Shown here: piece after piece, positions 1 through 62,457 of the stretch | Numbering within the stretch: position 1 is the stretch's first letter | Layout of the letters: each line of letters starts with the position of its first letter | Virus record (IMG/VR): IMGVR_UViG_3300045594_000630 | Strand: one strand, 5' to 3' | DNA from: a virus | DNA: 64,000 nt | Position numbers and translations under genes: made by a program | The notes under the pieces: model-generated | What the model saw: only the letters and a program-made list of their open reading frames with translations | Database searches by the model: none | Told to the model about the DNA's origin: nothing

Positions 1-189
1 ATGGGAAGCGTGTGGACAGTGGCGGGAGGAACATGCTGTCCACATCAGCGAGTAACGATCTGATCTCAATCTTCATGGTGTCAGGAATGTGGTCAATGAT
101 CGTCAAGGCAACGGGTTTCTTATCCATGAGGATGTCCTTGTATAGGGTCGATACTGATGTGAGGTCTTGCTCGATGCAGATCAACGATA

Positions 190-1002
190 TCAGAACGTGA
201 ACACGATCTTGAGTCTGCAGGTGTCAAGCAGCTTCAGATTGTATGAGAGACGATCGATGTCTGACAGCATGGACTGCAACGATCTGCTGCTACCGAGTCT
301 GGATAAGATCATGCCTTCAGGTGAGATCACCCATTCAGGATGCTGCGCGTCTTGATGGTCGAAGATCTTGGGCTTCCTGCCGATCCATGCAAGAGCTGGC
401 TTCATAGATGCGGACAGGTTGAGGACAGCGTCAGACCACGCTTCAGCATAAGCGGTCTTCACGCCCTCCTTCCTCAGATCGTTCCAGGTGATGTCCTCAT
501 TCCTGATAGCATCATAGATCCCGACACTTACCGTCTTATGAATGATCGTGCTGTCCTTACTGATCCCCTCCGACCATGACGCGATCTGCTCCAGTCCACC
601 CGAGTACAAGCCCATACGATCGAGTTCACCGTCTGATGAGACGCTCCGGACGTCTGACCACCATTCGGGTCTGCGCATGATCGAATCTGCGGAAGGCCTC
701 CATATGGGCTCGAAGATCAATGGTTCTCCAGATCTGTGATGATCCCGCACCATGCGGATGAGTCGCATGCTGATGAGCGCGCGGGCTGACGACATCTCCT
801 GGGATGCAGGTGTCCGCAGTGTCTTCATGACCGGGGGATCAGTCTTGTCATGATCTTCCAGCCAGGCCACGGCTGCATTCTTGTCCGTCCAGTGTCTCAT
901 GGGCTTCCCGTTCTTATCCCTATGATTACGGCACTGCTTCGGGTCTTTCGCATAGCATTTCTCAAGACGTCCATCAGATATGACCCAGGAGATCTTCGAC
1001 AT
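190..1002 (-). CDS. hypothetical protein with N-terminal G-x-C-x-A-x-C-x-H motif
   Basis: ORF track 190..1068; start moved to the ATG at 1002 (MSKISW) because the shared Cys/His motif then lies at the N-terminus, as in three other proteins here. Confidence 0.7.
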   Translation of the reverse strand: MSKISWVISDGRLEKCYAKDPKQCRNHRDKNGKPMRHWTDKNAAVAWLEDHDKTDPPVMKTLRTPASQEMSSARALISMRLIRMVRDHHRSGEPLIFEPIWRPSADSIMRRPEWWSDVRSVSSDGELDRMGLYSGGLEQIASWSEGISKDSTIIHKTVSVGIYDAIRNEDITWNDLRKEGVKTAYAEAWSDAVLNLSASMKPALAWIGRKPKIFDHQDAQHPEWVISPEGMILSRLGSSRSLQSMLSDIDRLSYNLKLLDTCRLKIVFTF

Positions 1003-1190
1003 GGTATGAAGATATGCAGATCTGGGCTCTTGTAGGATGCGGACAAGACCTGGCGGCGATGATAGCATCTACGGCCACCGGGTACGTCTGGACTCTCGTG
1101 GACACGCCGGCTAAGTAAGATCATAAAAAGTTTTTTGGCTACGGGTCTCAACGTTTAGAGCATATCTGCAAAAGATCTTCCTGATAGATG

Positions 1191-1219
1191 TTGCATTCAT
1201 GCTAGCTCCGTGATATATT
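1191..1219 (+). promoter_or_regulatory. sigma70-type promoter upstream of the stand-alone omega-RNA
   Basis: TTGCAT-17 nt-TATATT with extended -10 TG. Confidence 0.65.
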
Positions 1220-1224
1220 ATCTA

Positions 1225-1425
1225 TTGTATTTGAAAGTTAAACAACTTGAATACAAGTTCGGGTTGAGCACCGTGTTACAGACGGAACGCTCCTGGCGTC
1301 CGAGAGGCGTCAGTCAAACCCCTGCTAGTAATCAGGGTTGACGTGAACGAGGATTCTCGGTAACGGCGACGGGTTTAACCAAGAATAACGGTTACTAGCA
1401 ACTGTCAACGTTCATAGGGAACGCT
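1225..1425 (+). ncRNA. stand-alone TnpB omega-RNA scaffold (to about 1405) plus putative guide
   Basis: About 1249-1405 is colinear with the 3' ends of both tnpB elements; conserved GCTAGTAA/TTACTAGC pseudoknot and AACTGT end; no tnpB ORF upstream. Confidence 0.8.
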
Positions 1426-1682: not shown

Positions 1683-1756
1683 CGGGTCGTAGCCCAGCTT
1701 GGTAGGGCGCCTCGTTCGGGACGAGGAGGCCGCGGGTTCAAATCCCGCCAACCCGA
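1683..1756 (+). tRNA. tRNA-Pro(CGG)
   Basis: cctcg-ttCGGga-cgagg. Confidence 0.92.
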
Positions 1757-1847
1757 CACGCCGTGGGAACACGATTGTCAACGACCGTGTTATCATGGAT
1801 AACGCCGCGCTTCACGGAGCGTCGATAACTTAAGAATGCACCATCAA

Positions 1848-1921
1848 CGGGATGTAGCGCAGCTTGGTAGCGCGCTTGCTTTGGGAGCAAGATGCCGCAG
1901 GTTCGAATCCTGTCATCCCGA
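1848..1921 (+). tRNA. tRNA-Pro(TGG)
   Basis: cttgc-ttTGGga-gcaag. Confidence 0.95.
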
Positions 1922-2459
1922 CGATGATCGCCTGATTCTCGTGACTGACTGATCGAGTGACGCTCGTGAAGATCAGCCGCGATGGTGATCTGAATAACTG
2001 AATACAGAACTGCTCGCACCAGTTGGAAGCAAAGTGCGCGACGGCCCGGGTACCGGAATGTGAAAGAACTCACCCTGCTTGGTCACGAAGATCACCATGT
2101 AGTCGATGGTGCAGTGACGGAGCGCCTGAATACAGGATCGAGCATGGGGAAGCCATCGCCCTGATTCTTGAAGGTCCGTATGGATCTGATGGAGATGTAC
2201 ATTGTACGTCAGCAACGCGATGATAACTCATGAACGGGATTACCAGCGTCATTCATGGAATGTTGACGACCCGTAGACATAAACAAGTTCCTTCAGATTA
2301 TCTTCAAAACGATGCAGATCTGCGGTCGGTGCGATGCAGATCTGAGGTCGTCGTCCCACCGGTGAGATGCACCGGCAACCGTTGATGATGCTGTGACCGC
2401 ATCATTGACAGCACATGTGGTCATCGTCGTGCTGGCGGACGTGAAACGCCAGTTCTTAT

Positions 2460-2534
2460 TCCCCGGGAGCAACCTTCGGCGGCTGCGATCGACTGTTAAT
2501 CGATAGAGAGCTGGTTCGACTCCAGTCCGGGGAG
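2460..2534 (+). tRNA. tRNA-Asn(GTT), atypical D arm (G8)
   Basis: atcga-ctGTTaa-tcgat; acceptor tccccgg/ccgggga. Confidence 0.8.
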
Positions 2535-2736
2535 CGATGGTTGAAAAGGGCGAAGATTGTTAAAAGATTGCTCATCATTCTGAATCCACGTGGTAGCTCC
2601 TCGTGGACGATGATAGGAAAGTCCGGAATCGAAAACTGATGACGATCATACTCTGGTCAATGTGCCATACAATCGGGAGGTCCATATCGTAATTCAGCGA
2701 GGCCTAGCGAGTAATTGACCTCAAGGTCCATCCAAT

Positions 2737-2813
2737 GCTTTCATGGCCCAATCGGCAGAGGCGCAGGGCACACTGCAGACCTGTTCATACTGGTTCGACT
2801 CCAGTTGGAAGCA
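2737..2813 (+). pseudogene. Leu-body tRNA-like gene with a 10-nt scrambled anticodon loop
   Basis: Body matches 6485-6558; anticodon arm caggg-cacactgcag-acctg. Confidence 0.65.
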
Positions 2814-2926
2814 CGCAGTATCAGTAGGCTATGAGCTGGCAGCGTGACGCAAGTCATCTTGGTTATCTGTGACCACCAGCGAGCTGAATGCAATAGCAGA
2901 CGGGTGAGTGCAAGGCTCACCATCAT

Positions 2927-3011
2927 GGATGATTCGCATAGAGGCCTAGTGCACTTGTCTTGAAAACAAGAGTGGGTCACACCACCGGGGGTTCGAATCC
3001 CTCATCATCCG
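2927..3011 (+). tRNA. tRNA-Ser(TGA)
   Basis: cttgt-ctTGAaa-acaag; long variable arm. Confidence 0.92.
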
Positions 3012-3121
3012 CGACCCGTACGTTGGGTCCATCTGGCGACACGATGGATTGGCGGTCCATCTTCTCCTGGCGGGGGATAGCCGGTTGATGTGATCGCATA
3101 CGGATTGCATCGCATACAGAT

Positions 3122-3206
3122 GCCCTCATGGCTGGAATAGGTAGACGCGGACGGCTCAAACCCGTCTCCCGTAATGGGGATCTCGGTTCGACTCCGAGTG
3201 AGGGTA
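3122..3206 (+). tRNA. tRNA-Leu(CAA)
   Basis: gacgg-ctCAAac-ccgtc; long variable arm. Confidence 0.92.
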
Positions 3207-3471
3207 CGACGAACACATCGGGCGGCTTAATCACCCGTCCGGTCGTGGGCATACATATGTCGCGCGTGGACGTGATTGATCCACGTGGATAGCCCGTTGC
3301 CAGGCATGTCCCGGCGGAAGTTTGATGCAGATTCTGCGTAGTTCGTCTTCCGTTGGGATCACTTGAAGACAGGTGCGGCCCGTTGGCTGCGGTGGAAGTG
3401 GGGTCCGAGTACCCAACGGTACCGGTTAGACTCCGGCTCCGGCGCGTGGGAACTCATCCATCTCCATATCT

Positions 3472-3545
3472 GCTCTCTTAGCCCAATTGGTAGAGGCGAT
3501 AGACCAAGGATCTATTCAGTGCGGGTTCGAGTCCCGTGGAGAGCA
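3472..3545 (+). tRNA. tRNA-Leu(AAG), C33, short variable loop
   Basis: ataga-ccAAGga-tctat; same body as the Leu TAG and CAG genes. Confidence 0.8.
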
Positions 3546-3896
3546 CAGATCTCATGACATCCTTACGGATGTCCTCTGAGATTCAGGGTCGATTCACTGT
3601 GGTGGTGATGAACATGCTCAAGGCCCGTCATGCAAGCATAGGAGTATGGAGCGAAGTTCCTATGTGGCTGCTGGTGCTGCGTAAACTGGTCGCGGTACAC
3701 GAATAACCAGATGATGTCCGGACTACTTGCCGGACAGACATGACAAGCAAGATGCTAACCACTGATTGCTTCCAGCATTAAATTGACTGGATAATGGCGA
3801 GATGGTGAAAGCCCATCGAGTGGAGTTAAAACCCGCGGCTTAATTAACCGTGGGGATCAGGGAGACTATGAATCGATCTGTTCACGCCACGCTTAC

Positions 3897-3969
3897 GCCC
3901 TTATAGCTCAGATGGTAGAGCAGCTGACTCTTAATCAGCGTGTCCGGGGTTCGAGCCCCCGTGAGGGCA
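3897..3969 (+). tRNA. tRNA-Lys(CTT)
   Basis: gctga-ctCTTaa-tcagc. Confidence 0.95.
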
Positions 3970-4017
3970 CTTATGAGCATTGATAGCATTGTGGCGCATT
4001 GATGATCATATGATTAT

Positions 4018-4101
4018 GGATGGTAGGCTGAGCGGTTAAGGCGCCTGTTCGCTAAACAGGTTCGTGTCACAGCGTGGTGGGTTCGACTCCCGCATCATCC
4101 G
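4018..4101 (+). tRNA. tRNA-Ser(GCT) copy 1, C33
   Basis: cctgt-tcGCTaa-acagg; paralog of 11519-11602. Confidence 0.82.
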
Positions 4102-4224
4102 CGGTCGGTAGGGGTTGTCCTCACTGGGCGATCAGCGACCTCATGAGCGCACGCATGGGATCAGTCACAGATCGTTGCAGTGCAGAACCCCTTCAGAAGA
4201 TGGACTCCGTGAAGGTCCACGAAT

Positions 4225-4297
4225 GCCGTCATAGCTCAGATGGTAGAGCGGCGAGCTGAAACCTCGCAGGTCGCTGGTTCAAGTCCAGTTGTCGGCA
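4225..4297 (+). tRNA. tRNA-Phe(GAA)
   Basis: gcgag-ctGAAac-ctcgc. Confidence 0.93.
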
Positions 4298-4298
4298 C

Positions 4299-4382
4299 GG
4301 TGCGGCTGAGCGACGGTCGCTCAGGTGGCCGTAACCCACCCGTTCGTAATGAGCATTGCAGGTTCGAATCCTGTCCGCACCA
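4299..4382 (+). tRNA. tRNA-Tyr(GTA), C33, atypical D arm
   Basis: ggtgg-ccGTAac-ccacc; acceptor ggtgcgg/ccgcacc. Confidence 0.75.
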
Positions 4383-4406
4383 CTCAGATCTGAAACAGAT
4401 CTGTAT

Positions 4407-4477
4407 GCGTCCATCGTATAATGGTAGTACTTGAGCTTCCAAACCTCATGATCTGGGTTCGATTCCTAGTGGGCGTG
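4407..4477 (+). tRNA. tRNA-Trp(CCA), probable (Gly-like D arm)
   Basis: tgagc-ttCCAaa-cctca with a C31-C39 mismatch; G73 and acceptor resembling 7618-7690. Confidence 0.65.
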
Positions 4478-4629
4478 CGAGACCAAGCCGTGAGGTGAGG
4501 TCATGGTTGACTGCATGATCGCCTACAATGCGTGTGGCTAGACACTGAAGTCATGCAGACAGCGTCGTCACTGGTATCGGCGGTGACGGCAACCGGTTCT
4601 CGTGTCCGGCTTACCAAAATACGACCAAT

Positions 4630-4702
4630 GGGGGCATGGCGCAGCTGGTAGCGCAACTCCTCAGCAAGGAGTAGGTCGCGGGTCCGAGTCCCGCTGCTTC
4701 CA
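4630..4702 (+). tRNA. tRNA-Ala(AGC), C33, C55
   Basis: actcc-tcAGCaa-ggagt; G3-U70, A73. Confidence 0.82.
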
Positions 4703-4929
4703 CTTGGATCCATCAAGACAGGGCGGCGTCAGCAGCATGATGGATCCGCGACACGCCGGTGATTGAGATCGGGCTGACTATGTTACAATGGTATTGTCCA
4801 CGAAAACGATGGATCACCCGAAGCCTGATAACCTAATCTAAGTCAATCATCTGGATCCATTGTCCACAGCGTATGCTCAGGATGATGGCAGGATGTCAAA
4901 GTCCCCGCGATGACGATAAACCCGCGAAT

Positions 4930-5010
4930 GCCCCTATGGTAGGAATTGGTAGACACGGTCGACTTAAAATCGATTGCTTAGGCGTCCCGGTTCGAGTCCG
5001 GGTGGGGGTA
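4930..5010 (+). tRNA. tRNA-Leu(TAA)
   Basis: gtcga-ctTAAaa-tcgat. Confidence 0.92.
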
Positions 5011-5125
5011 CAAGGTCGCGCCTAGGCGCGACCGCTCATCGGATCCATGTGATTCGATGAGCATGCAGTACCGTGAGATGATGCGGGTTCGAGTCCGCCT
5101 GGCAATCATTAACGGTGACGGAGTT

Positions 5126-5197
5126 GATCTAGTAACTCAATGGCAGAAGCTACTCCATTTATTGTGGAAATGCGGGTTCGAATCCCGCCTAGTGATC
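5126..5197 (+). pseudogene. degenerate tRNA (loop ttTATtg)
   Basis: Intact T arm gcggg-ttcgaat-cccgc; 2-nt insertion in the acceptor; weak D arm. Confidence 0.45.
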
Positions 5198-5282
5198 CGT
5201 CACAGATGATGCTGTGCGTCAATGGCGCATTGGAATAGATTCAACATTCTAATGGGGCCAGTCATCCAGCGTCCGCATGAAT

Positions 5283-5356
5283 GCTTTCATAGCCCAATAG
5301 GTAGAGGCGATGGATTTAGGATCCATTCAGTGCTGGTTCGAGTCCAGTTGAAAGCA
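5283..5356 (+). tRNA. tRNA-Leu(TAG), short variable loop
   Basis: atgga-ttTAGga-tccat. Confidence 0.9.
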
Positions 5357-5359
5357 CAA

Positions 5360-5446
5360 TGTCCGAATCAACTTAACGGCAGAGCAGCGGCCGAAACGCC
5401 GTGCGCGGGTCATTCCCGGCCTGTAGGGTTCGACTCCCACCGGACA
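5360..5446 (+). pseudogene. class II tRNA-like gene with a 6-nt anticodon loop
   Basis: gcggc-cgaaac-gccgt; variable-arm hairpin; ttcgact T loop. Confidence 0.4.
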
Positions 5447-5587
5447 GGAGCTGTATGCAAGTGGTGACGATCATGAGCATACGGTTCACAGCGTGGCGAA
5501 GATCTTGACGATGATCTTCATCACGCACGTTTGGCTCTATCATCGCTTGGCGATGATTGCAAGGTTCATCCCAAGGAGCCAATTCAT

Positions 5588-5659
5588 GGCCGTGAGGTCC
5601 TACGGTTGGACGCCTGCCTGTCGAGCAGGTTGCAGCGGGTTCAACTCCCGTCATGGTCG
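5588..5659 (+). tRNA. tRNA-Asp(GTC) copy 1
   Basis: cctgc-ctGTCga-gcagg. Confidence 0.88.
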
Positions 5660-5904
5660 CAAGGTGCCTGGTGTCTGCGCCGAGGATCAGCCCCTGGCTG
5701 ATCCATGACACCCGGTGGAAACGGCATGGTGACATGAAAACAGCATGGATCCATGATACGCCCTCCGTCTGTTACTTTCCGTCGGTGATGCTGAGGCGGC
5801 GGGGTTAACGATCTGTATTGTAGCGGATCGCTGCCGGCACGACCACATGGTCTTGAATGGACATGAAGCATCTCACGTGACGTCCGTGAAGCGTCACTTA
5901 AATT

Positions 5905-5984
5905 GGTGCGTTGGCAGAGCGGCAAATGCGGCTGGCTGTAAACCAGCTCTTTCGGGTTCGGGGGTTCGAGTCCCTCACGCACCA
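5905..5984 (+). tRNA. tRNA-Tyr(GTA)
   Basis: gctgg-ctGTAaa-ccagc. Confidence 0.93.
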
Positions 5985-6129
5985 CACAACATGTTTGGAT
6001 GGGTTAAAGGACACCAATGGCCCCATCCTGTTGACAGTGCTCACTGTCAACAGCGTGTGATCGTGCAGTGCAGGTGCCCAGTCGACCACTGCACGGGATA
6101 GTCCTCATGATGACGATAAAAGCATGAAT

Positions 6130-6200
6130 GCCTCTATAGTTCAAAGGAAGAACTTCGGACTTTTAATCCGCAGATCGGATATCGTAATTCCGTGGGGGCA
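6130..6200 (+). tRNA. tRNA-Lys(TTT) with aberrant T loop ATCGTAA
   Basis: tcgga-ctTTTaa-tccgc; acceptor gcctcta/tgggggc. Confidence 0.7.
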
Positions 6201-6484
6201 CGATGGTCATGTGGATTGCAACTGCGTGATCACGACTCGAATCTGCAGATTCGGGAATATGGATGCAAGTGAGCACAAGCCGCTGGTTGTGGTTCGAATC
6301 CCGCTCCTCAATGGTTATACCGGCGAGGGCGCGCCAATCGGTAGAGCGGGCGGCTGAACTCAACTGCATTCATCATGCAAGCATGTGGGGGTGTTCGACT
6401 CCCGCCTAGGGGCTCCATCGTGAGAGCGGTGGACACGCCCTTGGTGGTCTAGGGGTCATGGCGCTTCATATTGCTTGCACTTAT

Positions 6485-6558
6485 GCTTCCATAGCCCAAC
6501 AGGTAGAGGCGCAGGCTTCAGGAGTCTGTCAGTGCCGGTTCGAATCCAGTTGGAAGCA
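6485..6558 (+). tRNA. tRNA-Leu(CAG), short variable loop
   Basis: caggc-ttCAGga-gtctg. Confidence 0.88.
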
Positions 6559-6695
6559 CGGGCCACTAAAGATGTGAGTTCGCTCTGAAATCTAGCTAGA
6601 TACATCAATTGACCAAGGATGGTAACGTTGCGGAGTCATGATCCGTATGACGCGGATGTCACACGATGTTGGCATCATGCATCACCATTCGATAT

Positions 6696-6769
6696 GCTCT
6701 CATAGCCCAATGGATCAGAGCGCTTGTCTACGGAACAAGAGGGTGCGGGTTCGAGTCCCGCTGGGAGCA
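6696..6769 (+). tRNA. tRNA-Arg(ACG)
   Basis: cttgt-ctACGga-acaag. Confidence 0.93.
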
Positions 6770-6795
6770 CCGTGACCACATGGTGTGGTCATTAT

Positions 6796-6866
6796 TGCCC
6801 ATTCGTCTAACGGCAGGACGAAGGTCTTTGGTACCTTTAAAGTTGGTTCGAATCCAGCATGGGCAG
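6796..6866 (+). tRNA. tRNA-Gln(TTG)
   Basis: aaggt-ctTTGgt-acctt. Confidence 0.92.
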
Positions 6867-6867
6867 C

Positions 6868-6940
6868 GCTTCTCTGGCTCAATGGTTACAGCATCTGACT
6901 CTTAATCAGAGGATTGTGGGTTCGATCCCCACGGGGAGCA
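6868..6940 (+). tRNA. tRNA-Lys(CTT) copy 2
   Basis: tctga-ctCTTaa-tcaga. Confidence 0.9.
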
Positions 6941-6974
6941 CTTGGGGACATTCTGGTGACAGATGTCTACCATA

Positions 6975-7014
6975 GGGGCGGCTATATACCATGGTTCAAA
7001 TCCATGGCGCTCCA
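6975..7014 (+). ncRNA. tRNA-Ala-like minihelix (acceptor plus T arm only)
   Basis: ggggcg/cgctcc with G3-U70 and A73; ccatgg-ttcaaat-ccatgg; 8-nt linker replaces the D and anticodon arms. Confidence 0.5.
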
Positions 7015-7056
7015 CGACGGATGATGTCAGATCTGCTCCACATCGTCCTCACGTAT

Positions 7057-7129
7057 TGCTTGATAGCGCAACTGGGAACGCGCTCCGCTCTGGACGGAGA
7101 GATTGCAGGTCCGAATCCTGCTCAAGCAG
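7057..7129 (+). tRNA. tRNA-Gln(CTG), C55
   Basis: ctccg-ctCTGga-cggag. Confidence 0.88.
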
Positions 7130-7217
7130 CTTCACAGGTTTGGTGGCTAGCGTCGGCGGGTTGATACTGCCGACGCCCGTAGCGAGGGAGAGTCCTCGTG
7201 CAGATCTGTGGATTCTT

Positions 7218-7292
7218 GCCCTTGTAGCTCAGCGGATCAGAGCATCGGTCCTCGGAACCGAGTTGTCGCAGGTTCGAATCCTGTCAGGGGCA
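7218..7292 (+). tRNA. tRNA-Arg(TCG), C33
   Basis: tcggt-ccTCGga-accga. Confidence 0.85.
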
Positions 7293-7330
7293 CTGGCGAT
7301 GGTGCAGGCAGTGATGCTTGCGGATCGCCT

Positions 7331-7375
7331 GCAGCGTCACCGGGTCAGGGTGGGAACACAGCAGCCCAGCGCTGT
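7331..7375 (+). ncRNA. ffs: minimal SRP (4.5S-like) RNA, domain IV/helix 8
   Basis: cagcgt-cacc-ggg-tcagg-gtg-GGAA-cac-agcag-ccc-a-gcgctg: GGAA tetraloop with the symmetric and asymmetric loops of the SRP consensus. Confidence 0.8.
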
Positions 7376-7377
7376 TT

Positions 7378-7450
7378 GGGGTTGTAGCTCAGATGGTAGA
7401 GCGCTTCGTTCGCATCGAAGAGGTCGCGGGTTCGACTCCCGCTAATTCCA
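7378..7450 (+). tRNA. tRNA-Ala(CGC)
   Basis: cttcg-ttCGCat-cgaag; G3-U70. Confidence 0.92.
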
Positions 7451-7532
7451 CTGACCTTGGATCTGGTCTTACCATTGATGGGGCGCTTAGCTCCGTCATC
7501 TTCTGTACCTAGGCTGGTCCGAGTGTCTTCAT

Positions 7533-7615
7533 GGTGCGTTGGCAGAACGGCGAATGCAGTCGATCATACAGATCGGCATCTTCGGGATACGGGGGTTCGA
7601 GTCCCTCACGCACCG
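7533..7615 (+). pseudogene. Tyr-body tRNA-like gene with extended anticodon arm and G73
   Basis: Paralog of 5905-5984; arm gtcgatc-ataca-gatcggc. Confidence 0.6.
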
Positions 7616-7617
7616 CA

Positions 7618-7690
7618 TCGTCCGTGGCGTAAATGGTAGCGCAGCGGTCTCCAAAACCGCAGATTGCAGGTTCGAGTCCTGTCGGGCGTG
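7618..7690 (+). tRNA. tRNA-Trp(CCA)
   Basis: gcggt-ctCCAaa-accgc; G73. Confidence 0.9.
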
Positions 7691-7724
7691 CTATGACTGC
7701 AACCTGTAAAAAGGGTAGTCGTAT

Positions 7725-7796
7725 GCCGGTATAGCACAATGGTCAATGCTTCTGCTTAGTAAACAGATGATGATGGTTCGATTCCATCTATCGGCT
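7725..7796 (+). tRNA. tRNA-Thr(AGT)
   Basis: tctgc-ttAGTaa-acaga (C31-A39 mismatch). Confidence 0.82.
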
Positions 7797-7797
7797 C

Positions 7798-7871
7798 GTT
7801 CGCGTGGCGCAGTTGGTTAGCGCGCTTCCATGACACGGAAGAGGTCGCCTGTTCGAGTCAGGCCGTGAGCA
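7798..7871 (+). tRNA. tRNA-Val(GAC)
   Basis: cttcc-atGACac-ggaag. Confidence 0.92.
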
Positions 7872-7872
7872 C

Positions 7873-7945
7873 GCCTCCATAGCTCAGATGGTAGAGCGGC
7901 TCTCTCGTAAAGAGCAGGTCTCCGGTCCGATTCCGGATGGTGGCT
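7873..7945 (+). tRNA. tRNA-Thr(CGT), C55
   Basis: gctct-ctCGTaa-agagc. Confidence 0.9.
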
Positions 7946-7975
7946 CTAGTGGAACAGATCTGTATCCACGATCAT

Positions 7976-8047
7976 GCGGGTATCGTACATCGGTAAGTAC
8001 ATCTTTCTGATGAGAAGAAAAGCGGAGTTCGACTCTCTGTACCCGTA
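7976..8047 (+). tRNA. tRNA-Ile(GAT), Gly-like body
   Basis: tcttt-ctGATga-gaaga; A73. Confidence 0.75.
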
Positions 8048-8071
8048 CTGGTGACAGACTGCTGTCATCAT

Positions 8072-8144
8072 GGGGACGTAACTCAATTGGTAGAGTGCTT
8101 CCCTTGCAAGGAAGATGTAGCGAGTTCGAATCTCGTCGCCTCCA
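8072..8144 (+). tRNA. tRNA-Ala(TGC)
   Basis: cttcc-ctTGCaa-ggaag; G3-U70. Confidence 0.92.
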
Positions 8145-8267
8145 CGGCGCCCGTTCAACGGGCTATGTCATTAGAAGCGTTCTAACGCGCATTAGACGTG
8201 AGACCATCATGAAGATGAGTGTTCATTCATCTTCATGGTTATCTCGCTTAGAACGCAATCTAAGCAT

Positions 8268-8339
8268 CCGGATGTAGTACAACGGTTAGTATAATTGTCT
8301 GATACACAATTGACGATAGTTCAACTCTATCCATCCGGA
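8268..8339 (+). tRNA. tRNA-Ile(GAT)
   Basis: attgt-ctGATac-acaat. Confidence 0.88.
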
Positions 8340-8406
8340 CTATGGATCCATATGATGTGGACATGTGAGCAAGCATTGAGCCCGTCATGATGGATCCATT
8401 CTGCAT

Positions 8407-8480
8407 CGCTGCGTAGCTCAGTTGGTGAGAGCGTTCGACCCATAATCGAGAGGTCGGTGGTTCGAGTCCACCCGTAGTGA
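8407..8480 (+). tRNA. tRNA-Met or Ile2 (CAT), C33
   Basis: ttcga-ccCATaa-tcgag; positions 1-72 paired. Confidence 0.82.
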
Positions 8481-8601
8481 CGATCCTGTTAGCATGACGA
8501 CTGGTCATCTCATGCTGATGGGGTAAGAATGAGAGCAGCGTTGGATTGACCGATCCGCGTGGATTTGCGTCCGTTAGTGGCGTGATCCCCCATTCGATTA
8601 T

Positions 8602-8674
8602 GGTCCTATGGAGCAACGGTCACCTCGTCTGATTCTCAGTCAGAAGATTCCGGGTTCGATTCCCGGTGGGACTA
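8602..8674 (+). tRNA. tRNA-Glu(CTC)
   Basis: tctga-ttCTCag-tcaga. Confidence 0.92.
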
Positions 8675-8892
8675 CGCAGCATTGAGTACATGTCCGGTTC
8701 AATGGGCACATCCAAATAGTCTCTCAGGATCAATGTGAGGATGGGTCAGATCATGATGGAAGTCCTGTAGATCGTGGTCATCATGCTGCACGCAACATAC
8801 GGGTCTAGCGGTCCCGTCGGTGATCATTGCGAGCATTACAGCGCATCGTGCTCGCATGATCTTACAGATCCTCCGTCAATGGATCTTATTAT

Positions 8893-8964
8893 GGCCTTGA
8901 GGTCCTCCGGTTGGACGCCTGCCTGTCGAGCAGGTTGCAGCGGGTTCGATTCCCGTCATGGTCG
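8893..8964 (+). tRNA. tRNA-Asp(GTC) copy 2
   Basis: Near duplicate of 5588-5659; one acceptor mismatch. Confidence 0.85.
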
Positions 8965-8965
8965 C

Positions 8966-9036
8966 CGTGGTGTGGCCGAATGGTTAGGCGGCGGTCTGCA
9001 AAACCGTATAAGTCAGTTCGATTCTGATCACCACGT
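8966..9036 (+). tRNA. tRNA-Cys(GCA)
   Basis: gcggt-ctGCAaa-accgt; U73. Confidence 0.92.
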
Positions 9037-9039
9037 CTT

Positions 9040-9353
9040 GAGTTCCGCTTGACGTCGCGCGTCTAACAGGCGTGAGGAAATTCGGGGCATCATAGGGCAG
9101 GGGTGTGGATTAGACCACCGATCGTGAGATCAGCGATAGCGCCGCAGAGACCATACCGCCGATGGATCCATACGGGTCACAGGCAAGGGTGAAAAGCGTG
9201 AGGTAAGAGCTCACGGGATAATCTTCGCGAGGAGATCCTTGGCAAGCCGACCCTGATGAAACCACAAGTCGTGCTGGGCGGCCCGTCCAATAGCACAGGT
9301 AGCGGGATCAGATGGATGGCGTCTTAGACAGAACTCCGGTTACGGTGGAACTC
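9040..9353 (+). ncRNA. rnpB: RNase P RNA (bacterial type A-like, compact)
   Basis: P1 gagttccgc/gtggaactc; CR-I gaggaaattcgggg; agcgccgcagaga; accgccgatgg; aagggtgaaaag-ggtaagagc; CR-V acagaactccggtta. Confidence 0.9.
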
Positions 9354-9378
9354 ATGAACGATCTGCTCGACACTCCGG

Positions 9379-9407
9379 TTGTCAAGATGCTCGATCAGTG
9401 ATATGAT
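9379..9407 (+). promoter_or_regulatory. internal sigma70-type promoter of the array
   Basis: TTGTCA-17 nt-TATGAT with extended TG. Confidence 0.55.
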
Positions 9408-9488
9408 GGATCATGTTGTTCCTGATGACAACAGAAGCTTGATAACAGGATAGTGATTGACCCGATGAAGTCAGTAAACTCATCATAT

Positions 9489-9562
9489 GCCCGCATAGCC
9501 CAATGGACTAGAGCGCCAGTTTCCTAAACTGTAGGTTGTCGGTTCGAATCCGACTGTGGGCA
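9489..9562 (+). tRNA. tRNA-Arg(CCT)
   Basis: ccagt-ttCCTaa-actgt. Confidence 0.9.
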
Positions 9563-9735
9563 CTTGGACACTCCGGTGAAGCTATCCTCATGTGAAGACG
9601 TAGGGGCTTGACAGGGGCTGGTGGAGTGGACAATCGTGTAGGCAATGCGGTTAAGCGTCGTCAATGGTCGCAAAGTAGGCGGAAGCGTTGACAAGCATGC
9701 CGATCCCAGCAGGATGGCGCCATCTTGCTGGTTAC

Positions 9736-9809
9736 GCCTCGGTAGTCTAATGGATCAAAACGCCACTCCTCTAAAGTGGATAGTATGGGTTCGAATCCCA
9801 TTCGAGGCA
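9736..9809 (+). tRNA. tRNA-Arg(TCT), C33
   Basis: ccact-ccTCTaa-agtgg. Confidence 0.85.
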
Positions 9810-9810
9810 C

Positions 9811-9885
9811 GTGGACTATGGCTCAATGGTAGAGCGACGGATTGTGGCTCCGTAGGTGCGGGTTCGATTCCCGCTAGCCCAACCA
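9811..9885 (+). tRNA. tRNA-His(GTG) with G-1, A73 and encoded CCA
   Basis: acgga-ttGTGgc-tccgt. Confidence 0.88.
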
Positions 9886-9926
9886 CCGATGAGAATGTCA
9901 ACAGATGTTGACAAGAATCATCGTAT

Positions 9927-10001
9927 GGCCCCGCGGTGTGCTTGGTCTGCGCATACGTGACTTTCAATCACATGGTGACGGTTCGAGTCCGTCCGGGGCT
10001 A
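9927..10001 (+). tRNA. tRNA-Glu(TTC)
   Basis: cgtga-ctTTCaa-tcaca. Confidence 0.85.
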
Positions 10002-10030
10002 CCCTCCATGAGACATGGATGAACGATCTT

Positions 10031-10101
10031 GCCCCATTGTCGCCGGTTGCGCAACGATATCTTATAAACATTGTAAGAGGGTTCAACTCCTTCATGGGGT
10101 A
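10031..10101 (+). tRNA. tRNA-Ile(TAT), atypical D arm
   Basis: gatat-ctTATaa-acatt; acceptor gccccat/atggggt; A73. Confidence 0.6.
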
Positions 10102-10266
10102 CTTGTCGGGGAATGGCATAGTCTCCAGCGCACGTCATCCTAGGTGGCGTGGTCAACTGGCGGCAAGCGCCAGCAGATCTGATCTGTCGCTTCCCGTAAG
10201 AACAGCTCCTCTCCCCGACCACATCGTGATATCTTGTACACGACATTGGTATCATGGTGCTTGCAT

Positions 10267-10337
10267 GCGGATGTAGCCCAATGGTAAGGCGTCAGTCTTC
10301 CAAACTGATTACGCGGGTCCGATTCCCGTCATCCGCT
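10267..10337 (+). tRNA. tRNA-Gly(TCC), C55
   Basis: tcagt-ctTCCaa-actga; U73. Confidence 0.9.
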
Positions 10338-10493
10338 CTGAAGGCCAACAGCTCCTGGACTAGCGATCCGAGAGTTGCATAAACGGTGTGGTAGTCTGTT
10401 GGCCTGTAACACGCGCTGCGTCTCATGTGCCGGCAAGCGCCGTCACGCAGGCTATATCGGACACTCACGTGGTGAGACAGGGTGTCCACCAAT

Positions 10494-10566
10494 GCGGACA
10501 TGGTCTAGCTGGTAAGACGCGACCTTCCCAAGGTTGAGATCGCGGGTTCGAGCCCCGTTGTCCGCT
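10494..10566 (+). tRNA. tRNA-Gly(CCC)
   Basis: cgacc-ttCCCaa-ggttg. Confidence 0.92.
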
Positions 10567-10693
10567 CGATCGTCATTGCGGTAATGGCTGGCCGGGCAGT
10601 AATGGCGTTGATACCCGGAACTGCGCTCCTTGTGGATTCGATTGTATCCACGCAGGGTTAGGCGATCACGATGGAGCTTGTCGCCGCCATTAT

Positions 10694-10766
10694 GCTTCCG
10701 TAGCTCAGATGGCAGAGCGCCTCGGTCACATCGAGGATGTCGATGGTTCAAGTCCATTCGGAAGCA
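10694..10766 (+). tRNA. tRNA-Val(CAC)
   Basis: cctcg-gtCACat-cgagg. Confidence 0.92.
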
Positions 10767-10767
10767 C

Positions 10768-10844
10768 TGCGGGGTCGAGTAGCAATTCGGTAGCTCTCGT
10801 GGCTCATACCCACGGTGTTGCAGGTTCAAATCCTGCCCCCGCTA
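10768..10844 (+). tRNA. initiator-like tRNA-fMet(CAT)
   Basis: cgtgg-ctCATac-ccacg; U1-U72 mismatch; only two of the three G-C pairs. Confidence 0.8.
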
Positions 10845-10885
10845 CTAAGATCTGCGCTCATGAACGCAGATCTGCATGCAGTCTT

Positions 10886-10961
10886 GCTCCTGTAGCCCAG
10901 TCCGGCCCAAGGCGTCTGCCTTACACGCAGAAGATCCATGGTTCGAATCCATGTGGGAGCA
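10886..10961 (+). tRNA. tRNA-Val(TAC)
   Basis: tctgc-ctTACac-gcaga. Confidence 0.92.
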
Positions 10962-11105
10962 CGGCGGAACCTACTTGCAAGAGTCATCGTGCTGATAGTT
11001 CCCGAACGGGAGTAAGACGAGTGCAGGGAATGCCCTGGACTCGTCGAGAATTCAATGGTCGACTGGTTCCTTTCGCAATGCTGGCATTCAAGCATTGCAC
11101 TCAAT

Positions 11106-11178
11106 GCGGACATAGCTTAGTTGGTAAAGCGCGACCTTGCCAAGGTCGAGACCGCGGGTTCAAGTCCCGTTGTCCGCT
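11106..11178 (+). tRNA. tRNA-Gly(GCC)
   Basis: cgacc-ttGCCaa-ggtcg. Confidence 0.95.
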
Positions 11179-11182
11179 CTTC

Positions 11183-11255
11183 GCCTTGTTAGCTCAGATG
11201 GTAGAGCGGCCGCCTTGTAAGCGGCAGGTCTCCGGTTCAAGCCCGGAACATGGCT
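11183..11255 (+). tRNA. tRNA-Thr(TGT)
   Basis: gccgc-ctTGTaa-gcggc. Confidence 0.93.
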
Positions 11256-11256
11256 C

Positions 11257-11341
11257 GGATGATTCGCATAGTGGTCGAGTGCACTTGTCTAGAAAACAAG
11301 AGTGGGTCACACCGCCGGGGGTTCGAATCCCTCATCATCCG
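11257..11341 (+). tRNA. tRNA-Ser(AGA)
   Basis: cttgt-ctAGAaa-acaag; near duplicate of Ser(TGA) at 2927. Confidence 0.88.
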
Positions 11342-11518
11342 CTATTGATGATGGATAGATCGGTCTTCAACGATCTTATCAGCAGTCAAGAAACATGATA
11401 GCAGGGATTGAAGATACTTGCTGTCATGGATCGTGGTGGACACGCCCTGGTGCATAGCCAGGAACACGATCTAGTCAGGGTGGCTCCATGCCATCACTGA
11501 CAGCGCCATGATCATTAT

Positions 11519-11602
11519 GGATGGTAGGCTGAGCGGTTAAAGCGCCTCACTGCTAATGAGGTTCGGGTAACACCGTGGCGGGTTCGACTCCCGCATCATC
11601 CG
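11519..11602 (+). tRNA. tRNA-Ser(GCT) copy 2
   Basis: cctca-ctGCTaa-tgagg. Confidence 0.92.
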
Positions 11603-11857
11603 CAAGATCATGCCGGCAGTGATGTGGACATGATCCCTCCGCCGCAGGGGAACTGGGGAGCCGTGTGGGATCCCCGACTGCGGTCATGTCGGCTCTGCCC
11701 ACAGACTGCCGGCATCGTGGAGATCCCTGGTCGCGCAGGTCAAGACGCGCCGTGGAGGCTGGCCGTGCTCCACGATCATCAAAAACCAGGCGGATATGCT
11801 AAACAGAGCTAATAGGAATCTGGGAACCATGCTGTCTGCATGTGAGACAGCATGTAT

Positions 11858-11943
11858 GGAGAGTGTGATCTATTGGTAAGGTCGACCCGCTTCGAATACG
11901 GGCGCCGGTAATACGGTTAGGGGTTCGATTCCCTTACTCTCCG
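11858..11943 (+). tRNA. tRNA-Ser(CGA)
   Basis: cccgc-ttCGAat-acggg; long variable arm; G73. Confidence 0.85.
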
Positions 11944-11958
11944 CAATCATTGTCACGG

Positions 11959-18757: not shown

Positions 18758-19945
18758 ATGAGTTCTAATGATGCACCGATCAAGATAGATCTTAGAGGCG
18801 TGCAGTACAAGCAATGGCAGAGCATCTTCAGTCTGCTAGCATACCCGGGTTGCTCGGAGGTTGAGATCAACGGACCTGACCTGGTGTTCATCAAGCATCG
18901 TGGCAAGAGGCTTCAGGTAGGCATAGACACCCCGAACCCGATCGCATGGGTCGATAACAGTGACTTCGAGCGCACGATGTCTGACGTTGAGAGCCATATG
19001 GTGAGATACGGTCAAGACTTCAAGGACTCATTCTGTATCTATGAGGGTGGACTCAGATTGAAGACACTTGACGGGGCGCCTGAGATCCGCGCCAGGTTCC
19101 ATTGCTTGAAGCCGCCGGTCTGCGAGTTCCCTGCTGTCACGATCGCGAAGCAGTCGGTAGAGCTTGCCACGCTGGATTCGATCTTGAAATCAGGATCGTT
19201 ATCCTTGGAGATGGCCAATTTCATCAAGGGACTTATGGCCAAGCGGCAGACGCTGGTGTTCTCAGGTGGAACAGGTGCCGGCAAGACTACATTCTTGAAC
19301 GCAGTGTCGAAGCTCATTGACCCTAAGGAGAGGGTCATTGTCTGCGAGGACGCCCCTGAGCTTCTGTTCGATCATATCCCCGACACCGTGTACTTGAGAT
19401 CATATCCTCGTCAGCCCGGCAAGAGTACTGATGACCAGGCCACTCTTTCATGGGTGGTGGCGCAGACAGCCCGTCAACGATGCGATCGTATCATCATCGG
19501 TGAGACCCGTGGACCTGAATTCTCCGACTTCCTCACCGCCGCGAACTCAGGCTTCGACGGCTCGATGACCACGCTCCATGCGAACACTCCTCGAATGGCG
19601 CTGGACAAGATGTTCAACTTCTCCAAGCGCGCTCCGGGCAACGGATCTACTCCGTCATCATCGATCAACCAAGACATTGCGAACGCCGTCGACTACATTA
19701 TCCAGCTCGGACGGCCCGGTGGAAGCAAGTATCGTGTTCTTGCGATCGAGGAGGTCACGAAGGTCGTTGGCGACACTGAGGCGGCCAAGATCAAGACGAA
19801 CCCGATCTTCCAGTATGACAAGGATGCCGATTCATGGCGTCGTGTTGGATGGCCGTCTGATGACACTATGAGGGAAGCTCTTAACAAGTTCGAGAGCGGG
19901 CAGTTCAGCCAGGAGCACCGCCGTCATACGACGAGAAGAATATGA
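18758..19945 (+). CDS. CpaF/TadA/VirB11-family secretion ATPase
   Basis: GGTGAGKTT, EDAPEL, RIIIGETRGPE, GSMTTLHAN. Confidence 0.92.
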   Translation: MSSNDAPIKIDLRGVQYKQWQSIFSLLAYPGCSEVEINGPDLVFIKHRGKRLQVGIDTPNPIAWVDNSDFERTMSDVESHMVRYGQDFKDSFCIYEGGLRLKTLDGAPEIRARFHCLKPPVCEFPAVTIAKQSVELATLDSILKSGSLSLEMANFIKGLMAKRQTLVFSGGTGAGKTTFLNAVSKLIDPKERVIVCEDAPELLFDHIPDTVYLRSYPRQPGKSTDDQATLSWVVAQTARQRCDRIIIGETRGPEFSDFLTAANSGFDGSMTTLHANTPRMALDKMFNFSKRAPGNGSTPSSSINQDIANAVDYIIQLGRPGGSKYRVLAIEEVTKVVGDTEAAKIKTNPIFQYDKDADSWRRVGWPSDDTMREALNKFESGQFSQEHRRHTTRRI

Positions 19946-19977
19946 TCATCATGATCACTCTTTGATATCTTCGTCAT

Positions 19978-29021: not shown

Positions 29022-31145
29022 TTGGTTAGCAACGATGAATCGTACACTGCTGACGACATCACGCATCTTGAATACCCGGTCTCTATATGGAAGAGACCGT
29101 CCATGTATCTTGGTGAACGTGGAGAGCAGCAGTCTGTCGGTATCCGTGAGCTCACGGACAATGCGACGCAGGAAGGCCTGAGAGGATTCGCAGATCATGT
29201 TCGCGTGATCTTCAATGAAGATGAATCCATCATCGTTCAGGACAATGGCCGCGGTCTTCCAGTTGACGTGAACAGGAAGACCGGTGAGAATGGCATCATT
29301 CTCACAATGGCCACGCTGCATGCAGGTGCTAACTTCAAGTCTGACGTGAAGGCGGGGCAGGCAGGAGCTGGTCTGAATGGTGTCGGCGCATCCGTCACGA
29401 ACGCTCTTGCGAAGAGATTTGACGTACTGGTGTACAGATCTGGCAAGGAGTACAGTCTGTCATTCCAGAATGGATACCCCGGACACTTCAATGGTGAAGA
29501 CCCTGACGCTGCGTTCAAGAAGGGCAAGGACATCATTGTCCATAAAGATCCCCGCCCTGCTGATGAACGCAAGACATGGAAGACAGGGACGTGGATACGG
29601 ATCTGGTATAATCAGGAGCACTTCCCTGATGATGAGAGCGTGGATCGGGAAGATCTCATCGAGCGCTTGAAGGGCGTGAGCTACATCATCCCCGGTCTTC
29701 ATATCGACATTGAAGACAGGATGCGCCATAATGAAGATGGCACGCCGTACTCATACTCGTTCTACTCGGAGCACGGTATACCTGAGTTCGTTGAGAACAT
29801 CTCCCCTGACGCTCTTCTTCCCGGATCTGAGACGAAGAGCGGCGGCGAATTCGAGAAGAAGGGCATCTACTCCGTCAAGGTGAATGGTCATTATGACGAG
29901 CACACGACGAATGAGCAGGGCAAGCCGATCATTGCTAAGAGAACGGTGACGGCAGATCTTGCCATGAGATGGGGCGTCGGTTATGAGCCTACCCTGAAGT
30001 CATACGTGAACACGATCCAGACGCATAACGGCGGTGTCCATGAGAAGGCGTTCGAAGACGCTATCGCGAAGACCTTCTCGCAACGGATGTCGTCAATGCG
30101 CGGGATGATCACGAAGAAGGACGAGCCGCCAATCTCGGAAGACATTCTTGGCGGCGCTACGATCGTTCTCTCCATCAATGTGCCGGAGCCGCAGTTCGTC
30201 GGACAGCAGAAGGACGAACTCTCCGGGCCAGAGGTGAAGAAGGCGCTGACGGCTGCATTCACCAGTGGATTCAATCGTCTTCTGAATTCAGCCCGTGAGC
30301 AGGATGCGCTCAGATCAATCTTCGAGAAGATCAAGACGGCTGCGAATGACCGTAAGTCCGCGCAAGACGCTAAGCTACTCAAGCGGCAGTCTCACCGCGT
30401 GACAAGCGCATCCCTTCCACCCAAGCTGTCTGACTGCGACGTGACTGACACCCCGGACTCAGAACTGCTGATCTGCGAGGGTGATTCCGCAGCAGGTACG
30501 ATCACCAAGGCCCGTGACGCGACGTACCAGGCTGTCATGCCGATCCGTGGTAAGATCTTGAACTGCTTGAAGGCTGACATGAAGAAGATACTCAGCAACG
30601 GTGAGGTCAATGACATTGCCAAGGCTCTCGGCGCTGGAATGGGAGACAACTTTGACTCAGAGCGATGCAGGTACGGGAGGGTCATCTTCGCGGCTGACGC
30701 CGATGTCGATGGCCTGCAGATCGATAACCTGCTGTACACGGTGTTCTACAGGCTGTTCAGAAGTCTTATCGAGGAGGGCAGGGTCTATCAAGCCGTGTCA
30801 CCATTGTATGAGATCAGATCTGGTTCCGGTAAGAATCAGAAGACTTACTACGCGATCGACGGTGAGGCCAGGGATAAGATCACGAAGAGACTCGACGCCG
30901 AGCATAAGACGTACAAGGTCGATCGTGATAAGGGACTTGGAGAGATGGACATCGATGACTTCTGGAACAGTGTGCTCGACCCCGAGAACAGGACGCTGAA
31001 GAAGCTCACACTTGATGATGTCCATGCTGCCGAGGACGCACTCACCCTGACGATGGATGATTCGTCTCAGGAGAAGAAGGATTTCATGAGTAACAACTTC
31101 GAGGCCGCTATTGAGACCGGGCTTATCGAAGGATTTGGAGACTGA
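29022..31145 (+). CDS. type IIA topoisomerase B subunit (GyrB/ParE)
   Basis: ELTDNA, DNGRGLP, GLNGVGAS, EGDSA, PIRGKILN, DADVDG, KGLGEM. Confidence 0.95.
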   Translation: MVSNDESYTADDITHLEYPVSIWKRPSMYLGERGEQQSVGIRELTDNATQEGLRGFADHVRVIFNEDESIIVQDNGRGLPVDVNRKTGENGIILTMATLHAGANFKSDVKAGQAGAGLNGVGASVTNALAKRFDVLVYRSGKEYSLSFQNGYPGHFNGEDPDAAFKKGKDIIVHKDPRPADERKTWKTGTWIRIWYNQEHFPDDESVDREDLIERLKGVSYIIPGLHIDIEDRMRHNEDGTPYSYSFYSEHGIPEFVENISPDALLPGSETKSGGEFEKKGIYSVKVNGHYDEHTTNEQGKPIIAKRTVTADLAMRWGVGYEPTLKSYVNTIQTHNGGVHEKAFEDAIAKTFSQRMSSMRGMITKKDEPPISEDILGGATIVLSINVPEPQFVGQQKDELSGPEVKKALTAAFTSGFNRLLNSAREQDALRSIFEKIKTAANDRKSAQDAKLLKRQSHRVTSASLPPKLSDCDVTDTPDSELLICEGDSAAGTITKARDATYQAVMPIRGKILNCLKADMKKILSNGEVNDIAKALGAGMGDNFDSERCRYGRVIFAADADVDGLQIDNLLYTVFYRLFRSLIEEGRVYQAVSPLYEIRSGSGKNQKTYYAIDGEARDKITKRLDAEHKTYKVDRDKGLGEMDIDDFWNSVLDPENRTLKKLTLDDVHAAEDALTLTMDDSSQEKKDFMSNNFEAAIETGLIEGFGD

Positions 31146-31148
31146 CAT

Positions 31149-53752: not shown

Positions 53753-53843
53753 CAACTGATCTGTCACCCCTGTCATCCATCTTATCAGATTCATGGTATG
53801 ATGCTACCATTGTTACGTACTTACGGTAAGATGGAGGTAGAGC

Positions 53844-62369: not shown

Positions 62370-62457
62370 TTCAGATCTACACGCGGAGGATACCATATGA
62401 CCCGTCTTGATATCTTATCAACGTAGAGAATGTTCAATCCGAAGCGAGGAAAATAGA

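Follow-up and report, generated by a model that had tools for sequence, protein, structure and literature searches.

The RNA subunit of ribonuclease P (RNase P) is usually regarded as a universal, chromosomal and single-copy housekeeping ribozyme. In its bacterial class-A form, represented by the M1 RNA of E. coli (rnpB) and by the P RNA of Thermotoga maritima, it comprises helices P1 to P17, a P4 pseudoknot with the nucleotide U69, five conserved regions (CR-I to CR-V), the P13/P14 pair and a GGU motif in loop L15. The same elements are found in an RNA gene at positions 9039-9354 (+ strand) of a 64,000-nucleotide (nt) stretch of DNA, hereafter the window, from the IMG/VR virus record IMGVR_UViG_3300045594_000630. 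Differently from the class-A RNAs named above, this copy is carried by a giant mobile element, within a transfer RNA (tRNA) array, and rnpA, for the protein subunit, is not among the gene families listed for the window; moreover, it is devoid of P18, its P3 is very short and its P4 contains the altered pairs U68-G358, G71-C356 and G73-U354. It is probable, with a likelihood that we put at roughly 60%, that the locus, borne by the element, encodes a functional catalytic RNA of bacterial RNase P (class A, without P18).

Other described systems share single traits with this locus. According to PMC8457005, where Haas 1994 and Marszalkowski 2006 are cited, P18 was naturally lost in Aquificales and Chlorobium, whose RNAs share with that of the window the absence of P18 and of the L18-P8 strut and the maintenance of the type-A fold. 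However, those RNAs are chromosomal, single-copy and essential, with a canonical P4 and, in the thermophiles, a compensating stabilisation, whereas the RNA of the window has a variant P4 and belongs to a mobile element. In plastids, cyanelles and the Paulinella chromatophore (PMC4264200) a dependent genome keeps an often reduced RNase P RNA, while the protein apparently comes from elsewhere; these genes are of vertical cyanobacterial descent, whereas the one in the window is on a mobile element in a cell with a complete RNase P. As for the location, theta ribozymes (minimal hepatitis delta virus-like ribozymes; bioRxiv 10.1101/2023.06.13.544163) also occur within phage tRNA clusters and are proposed to act in the maturation of the phage tRNAs; they are small, self-cleaving and cis-acting at single tRNAs, whereas RNase P RNA is a trans-acting, multiple-turnover ribozyme working on 5' ends. 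Finally, dense arrays with transfer-messenger RNA (tmRNA) and translation factors nearby are known from the tRNA array units of phages, plasmids and mycobacteria (PMC5966550, PMC12803027) and from the translation genes of huge phages (PMC7162821); "RNase P RNA" is not mentioned in the first two papers, nor "RNase P" in the third. A literature search, whose coverage leaves most subscription journals outside, found no phage, plasmid or other mobile element reported to carry an RNase P RNA gene. New here are a long-branched lineage that lacks P18 and has a variant P4, with strong pairwise covariation also inside P4, a change in the place of the gene between syntenic arrays, the link between tRNA genes encoding only C74 and a CCA-adding enzyme, and a carrier that is possibly not a tailed phage.

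The identity of the gene was established with the Rfam model RF00010 (RNaseP_bact_a), which cmscan with Rfam 15 matches at 9039-9358 (+ strand) with 166.5 bits and an E-value of 6.5e-52. The gathering score of the family is 100 bits and the match spans model positions 1-367 of 367, untruncated; class-A membership is thus given by a score above the gathering one across the whole model, which bears out the rnpB called by an initial annotation of the stretch. The extent proposed there, 9040-9353 (314 nt), needs a small correction, since the 5' strand of P1, read from the sequence at 9039-9049 (+), pairs with 9344-9354, leading to an RNA of about 316 nt, against a model of 367 positions. The gene directly follows tRNA-Cys(GCA) (8966-9037, +; Rfam, ARAGORN and sequence), from which the annotation placed it 3 nt away; P1 begins 2 nt after the discriminator: this is U9036, the encoded C74 is C9037, and the tRNA gene ends 1 nt before P1. 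Upstream, tRNA-Asp(GUC) (8893-8965, +) abuts tRNA-Cys; downstream, a 134-nt spacer (9355-9488, +) leads to the next gene, tRNA-Arg(CCU) (9489-9563, +), both tRNAs being called by Rfam and ARAGORN. The ribozyme is therefore embedded among its would-be substrates, as the annotation had it, being on the same strand and 2 nt from tRNA-Cys, in a layout common to its relatives.

In the cmscan alignment P1-P3, CR-I, P5-P12, CR-II, CR-III, P13, P14, P15-P17, CR-IV and CR-V are all present. On the + strand, CR-I with the 5' strand of P4 (9079-9087; U68, the bulged U69 kept, G71) occupies 9074-9088, CR-II (AAGGGUGAAA) and CR-III (GGUAAGAGC) lie with P13 at 9185-9210, the P14 hairpin with its GCGA tetraloop at 9216-9238, the L15 GGU motif at 9298-9300, and CR-V with the 3' strand of P4 (9334-9341) at 9328-9343; the two P4-bearing regions were checked also against a table of P4 pairs, and the L15 and CR-V assignments against the sequence. 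CR-II and CR-III, the modules by which the specificity (S) domain recognises the tRNA elbow, do not differ from the consensus, and CR-I and CR-V depart from it only at paired P4 positions. The joining region J5/15 reads AAA at the A248 position and the GGU of L15 is kept, both positions being assigned by alignment and not by structure. The predicted ribozyme keeps its substrate-reading and catalytic motifs intact. The annotation had listed all conserved regions, and this holds for CR-I to CR-V, which align to RF00010, but helix P18 is gone; the site of the deletion, at 9307-9309 (+), is found by cmscan and is the same in the closest relative described below. Since loss of P18 is known within the family (PMC8457005), its absence does not exclude RF00010 membership.

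P4 is a well conserved helix, and its bulged U69 binds a catalytic metal (PMC11143913). In the window the two strands, AAUUCGGGG at 9079-9087 and CUCCGGUU at 9334-9341, form 8 of 8 pairs, two of them G-U/U-G, with the bulged U maintained, in agreement with the variant P4 of the initial annotation. Three pairs are off consensus (E. coli numbering): G68-C358 has become U-G, C71-G356 is replaced by G-C and G73-C354 by G-U; A65-A67, the bulged U69, C70, G72 and G74 are unchanged. Positions 68, 71 and 73 are among those that we take to vary across the domains of life, on the basis of the universal CR-I consensus. A U68-type P4 is rare in cells: when genomes of about 185,000 species, one genome per species, were scanned for U68-type CR-I, 65 hits were obtained, and just 3 of them are real RNase P RNAs (two bacterial metagenome-assembled genomes and one archaeon), a number to be taken as a lower bound because the pattern demanded fixed CAUAG spacing. 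The same type recurs in four lineages of large viral contigs. Nearly all array-embedded RNAs with a readable P4 form 8 of 8 pairs (7 of 8 in L121 and in the L057/L066 pair), and six pairs covary across them, namely 67-359, 68-358, 71-356, 72-355, 73-354 and 74-353.

Relatives were sought in IMG/VR by exact-pattern scans, then with Rfam, and then with an nhmmer profile and ARAGORN. RNase P RNAs were found in well over 100 viral contigs and, in at least 20 distinct contigs of up to 463 kb, the RNA lies inside a tRNA array, often no more than 15 nt from a tRNA on both sides; examples of such layouts, with the RNase P RNA in the middle, are Cys/Gly(UCC), Leu(CAG)/Arg(UCG), Val(UAC)/Arg(CCG) and Thr(GGU)/Gly(GCC). 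Other viral clades have kept P18 and lost P13/P14. The closest relative found is the record IMGVR_UViG_3300044557_000292 (G001), of 419,707 bp, with terminal repeats and 100% completeness according to CheckV. Its RNA is a homologue (148 bits), also P18-less, and is 65% identical to that of the window; identity of the two to all other RNAs is 60% or less, and their pairing is fully supported in the tree. RNAalifold on these two sequences, followed by counting with a script, identified 79 pairs, 19 of which are changed on both sides and yet still paired, including 6 of the 9 pairs of P1, 3 in P13 and 2 in P14. In P4 of G001 three further double changes occur (A67-U359 to G-C, G71-C356 to A-U and G72-C355 to C-G), and pairing is still 8 of 8. 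These 19 compensatory changes, together with the 3 in P4, indicate that the fold of the ribozyme is under selection.

Comparison of window 8000-11400 with the corresponding part of G001 (L100, 300000-318000) revealed that the two arrays are largely syntenic, with the order Cys, Arg, Arg, Glu, Gly, Gly, Val, Met, Val, Gly, Thr, Ser. The ribozyme is found between Cys and Arg(CCU) in the window and between Gly(GCC) and Thr(UGU) in G001; since the order of the array is shared while the ribozyme stands at different points, the gene has moved within the array. Neither the ribozyme nor 24 kb of the window had a BLAST match among GenBank phages or PLSDB plasmids, a clade-specific 23-mer retrieved G001 alone in IMG/VR, and the scan of a single metagenome returned only copies of the L016-type RNA.

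Some viral copies are outside arrays, since the RNase P RNAs of four contigs (L111, of 447 kb; L134, of 94 kb; L156; L187) are more than 2 kb from any tRNA; these RNAs have another P4, with U68-A358 and U71-G356. On a 385-kb viral contig (L074) a GOLLD RNA (212 bits) lies within the tRNA array, and two weak fragments resembling the ends of RNase P RNA, not called by Rfam, are located next to tRNA-Leu; the stretches concerned on this contig are 5070-5488 and 2787-3115, both on the - strand. A partial rnpB-like BLAST match was also obtained in the GenBank entry "Microcystis phage MaAM05" (L259, MW495066.1:112823-117917), amid fabI, engB and mtgA; it was dropped as a phage rnpB, as this setting looks bacterial.

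The putative substrates are, in the first place, the 51 co-oriented tRNA genes found by Rfam and ARAGORN at 1683-11944 (+). The base following the discriminator is C (C74) in all 45 Rfam-called tRNAs of the window, while C75 is depleted (3 of 45) and a full CCA is encoded by one gene in 45. Similarly, 32 of 38 tRNA genes of the G001 array are C-only, and in the other ribozyme-bearing arrays C, CC or CCA is encoded almost without exception. On the 5' side, N-1 is U in 36 of the 51 tRNAs, and of the 41 genes preceded by a spacer 31 have a leader ending with A-2U-1; the other 10 abut the preceding tRNA, so that a single RNase P cut would make both ends at such a junction. These features correspond to known contacts of the ribozyme: the GGU of L15 pairs with tRNA positions 73, 74 and 75, a pairing that neither E. 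coli nor B. subtilis can dispense with in vivo, and A248 with its neighbouring residues binds A-2/U-1 leaders (PMC11143913). The precursors of the array look like optimal canonical substrates, and ribozyme and precursors alike retain the usual recognition code. The window further encodes a tmRNA, also a classical substrate of RNase P, at 53408-53755 (+; RF00023, 73.3 bits, and ARAGORN). At 2737-2814 ARAGORN predicts a tRNA with a four-base anticodon (ACUG) and an enlarged loop, scoring 36.5 bits in Rfam. T-arm-like repeats of the GGTTCGA type are present in spacers of the array, at 5076-5102, 5171-5203, 5423-5440, 6288-6304 and 6388-6405; neither ARAGORN nor Rfam calls a tRNA at these five sites, and the repeats may be degenerate tRNAs or tRNA-like minihelices.

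As far as transcription is concerned, no terminator-like site was found between tRNA-Cys and the ribozyme or directly 3' of the latter; the 134-nt spacer downstream displays no significant fold, with a minimum free energy z-score of -1.0 that is uninformative. Since the 2-nt gap leaves no room for a promoter and terminators were not found, the ribozyme is likely co-transcribed with the tRNA array. The best sigma-70-like match in the first 13 kb is located right after the ribozyme, at 9379-9407 (TTGTCA, 17 nt, TATGAT, with an extended -10 TG); promoter- and terminator-like sites are no commoner in the array than in shuffled sequences, so this match is to be considered only a lead.

The protein subunit, RnpA (PF00825), is not among the families listed for 42 open reading frames (ORFs) of the window, for which 25 of 33 families are listed, and it was found in none of 25 viral records bearing RNase P RNA, 9 of them at least 90% complete; in a control, the same search recovered it in 10 of 10 bacteria. 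It follows that the RNA either uses the RnpA of the host or works without protein, and most likely the putative ribozyme would work with the host protein. Bacterial RNase P RNAs and proteins are exchangeable between species. As to the 3' ends, a contig of the Logan assemblies (L257), which overlaps window positions 1-1405 with zero mismatches and reaches 7 kb further upstream, encodes a CCA-adding enzyme of 481 aa (PolyA_pol, PolyA_pol_RNAbd and HD domains) at L257:1767-3212 (-), that is about 0.4-1.8 kb upstream of the window start and oriented as the tRNA array. The gene for initiation factor 3 (IF3) is upstream of it (L257:3270-3761, -), and the two genes together lie about 0.4-2.4 kb before window position 1. 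The C74-only genes, the abutting tRNAs, the CCA-adding enzyme and the RNase P RNA fit one another in a way that suggests a single maturation pathway encoded by the element.

In such a pathway the ribozyme would be co-transcribed with the neighbouring tRNA genes and released from the precursor by the nucleases that free the tRNAs: its 5' end would be made by an endonucleolytic cut after tRNA-Cys and, in the relatives, its 3' end by RNase P cleavage at the next tRNA. The RNA could then bind host RnpA, forming a hybrid holoenzyme that would add to, or secure, the 5'-end maturation of the 51 tRNAs of the element and probably of its tmRNA, and the CCA-adding enzyme of the element would complete the C74-only 3' ends after the RNase P cuts. 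Expression, catalysis and use of the host protein are what we infer from the sequence. Of the initial annotation, the element-encoded ribozyme among its substrates stands, whereas "self-processing" is overstated: no RnpA was found in the window or in the 25 related records, and in the cell the RNA would probably depend on the host protein.

Several observations weigh against a functional gene with this role. P18 is absent, 25 model positions being replaced by 1 nt at about 9307-9309, and without P18 the E. coli RNA, acting alone, is slower by a factor of more than 3000 (PMC11143913). P4, normally well conserved, has a U-G wobble beside the bulged catalytic U69 and a further G-U wobble, P15 has one A-C mismatch, L8 departs from the consensus and P3 is very short, with 5-6 pairs and a 3-nt loop; P18 loss, P4 wobbles, P15 mismatch, short P3 and L8 change could all weaken catalysis or protein binding. 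The minimum free energy z-score of the ribozyme (-0.87) is not significant and is uninformative, and the window and G001 RNAs are on a long branch. Moreover, for the element of the window the search for RnpA covered ORFs of the 64-kb window, and the array possibly forms more than one transcription unit, because its strongest promoter-like match is just 3' of the ribozyme.

Part of these observations would be accounted for by a weak or dead RNA acting as a decoy, which soaks up host RnpA or competes for precursors and leads to shutdown of host tRNA maturation or to regulation of that of the element. The missing P18, the wobble beside U69, the P15 mismatch and the short P3 point in this direction, as does the lack of a carried rnpA, by which the RNA would compete for the host protein. 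However, the element has its own 51 tRNAs and a tmRNA in need of RNase P, a mere protein sponge would require neither the conserved catalytic nucleotides nor both substrate-binding modules, and covariation reaches the S-domain helices P13 and P14; a decoy is accordingly rated as quite improbable. Even less credit is given to a captured host rnpB that drifts in the array as a hitch-hiker with no present function. Its long branch, the 65% identity to the nearest relative and at most 60% to the others, the loss of P18, the mismatches and the different array position in G001 would suit such a copy, but the 22 compensatory changes, the lack of any broken pair in P1, P4, P13 and P14, the intact conserved regions, and retention in two relatives whose proteins are about 66-69% identical, as well as in many other lineages, argue against it. 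An assembly chimera or host contamination, by which the rnpB would come from a bacterial chromosome, is hardly credible: many small IMG/VR contigs do carry a consensus-type rnpB at the contig end, without an array, and look like host flanks, whereas the present gene has a tRNA at 2 nt and is enclosed by a 10-kb array, G001 (420 kb, terminal repeats) has the homologue in a syntenic array, G001 and four further records (G002-G005) have no small-subunit (SSU) rRNA, and no near match was found by P4 signature in the roughly 185,000 genomes.

A different possibility is that the RNA is specialised or orthogonal, being adapted through its altered P4 to deviant tRNAs (odd T loops, C33, a minihelix, C74-only ends) and processing the array in place of the ribozyme of the host; this is close to the initial annotation, in which the ribozyme was thought to be tuned to non-canonical tRNAs. 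The rarity of the U68-type P4 in cells, with its recurrence in four viral-contig lineages, speaks for it, and so does the combination, in the window/G001 clade, of this P4 with C74-only tRNA genes and P18 loss. Conversely, P4 belongs to the catalytic core and is not a substrate-reading module; the readers of the elbow (CR-II/CR-III), of N-1 (the A248 position) and of the 3' end (the L15 GGU) match the consensus, and the precursors carry canonical signals, A-2U-1 and C74. Furthermore, the L016/L017 clade has the same U68/G71 P4 beside tRNA genes encoding the full CCA, and no protein subunit of its own was found for the RNA. Since the recognition code is standard and P4 does not track the oddities of the tRNAs, tuning is rated low and lacks support; the idea as a whole is improbable, if less so than a decoy. 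A functional class-A RNase P RNA remains the preferred reading.

The carrier is a giant mobile genetic element of at least 262 kb. An exact-protein look-up found the GyrA of the window on a 262,079-bp contig of the Joint Genome Institute (JGI; Ga0455796_000023, L089, sample 3300046047) and in independent Logan assemblies. The JGI contig starts inside gyrB, at about window position 29,687 (gyr region 29022-33551); since the window spans the end of this contig, either there is a longer record or the element has a circular or permuted form. The proteins of the window include two TnpB, GyrB/GyrA, a NAD-dependent ligase and a Dda-like helicase; dUTPase, dCTP deaminase, a sigma-70-family factor, HU, TelA and a TET-associated glycosyltransferase; and ParA/ParB, FtsK-like proteins, a T2SSE-family ATPase, a TraG/TrwB-like coupling protein and RcpC. 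T2SSE-family ATPase, TraG/TrwB-like protein, RcpC/CpaB and ParA/ParB are encoded within 18758-22506 and 61014-63954.

No virion structural gene was seen in the 64-kb window. The TraG-like protein of G001 is 66-69% identical to that of the window, and G001 has no true match to phrog_2, PF03237, PF17289, PF05065, PF04984, PF04865 or PF06841, a result that divergent genes could escape; its weak phrog_2 "terminase" match turned out to be a Dda/PIF1 helicase. Each of G002-G005 has at least one virion hallmark (Baseplate_J, terminase or gp19 tube protein). The profiles for capsid (PF05065), sheath (PF04984) and Terminase_6C say little, because all of them miss G005, a clear phage, which has no match to the capsid and Terminase_6C profiles and, for the sheath, only a sub-threshold one. 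VirB4 (PF03135) was not found in G001, and the absence of SSU rRNA indicates that G001-G005 are not cellular. The window/G001 clade may represent giant elements of plasmid-like nature that IMG/VR lists among the viruses.

A bolder proposal is a non-phage, plasmid-like giant element with a near-complete kit for RNA maturation and translation, comprising 51 C74-only tRNAs, a CCA-adding enzyme, an RNase P RNA, a tmRNA, a mini signal recognition particle (SRP) RNA and IF3, in which the ribozyme, fast-evolving, devoid of P18 and with a variant P4, is functionally distinct from that of the host. We regard it as unlikely, though not to the same degree as the rival explanations above. If it were true, the ribozyme would perhaps be immune to something that disables host RNase P RNA, or would favour C74-only precursors, and the tRNA supply of the element would be independent of the host's own ribozyme.

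For the preferred reading, a functional RNase P RNA gene, the mobile copy would stand for a type of auxiliary gene not described before, kept under selection, located amid its substrates and carried without a protein partner, and it would extend the translation functions that giant phages and elements bring into the cell. These RNAs are also natural experiments on which pairs of the P4 core may change and which peripheral helices may go, P18 in the window/G001 clade and P13/P14 elsewhere.
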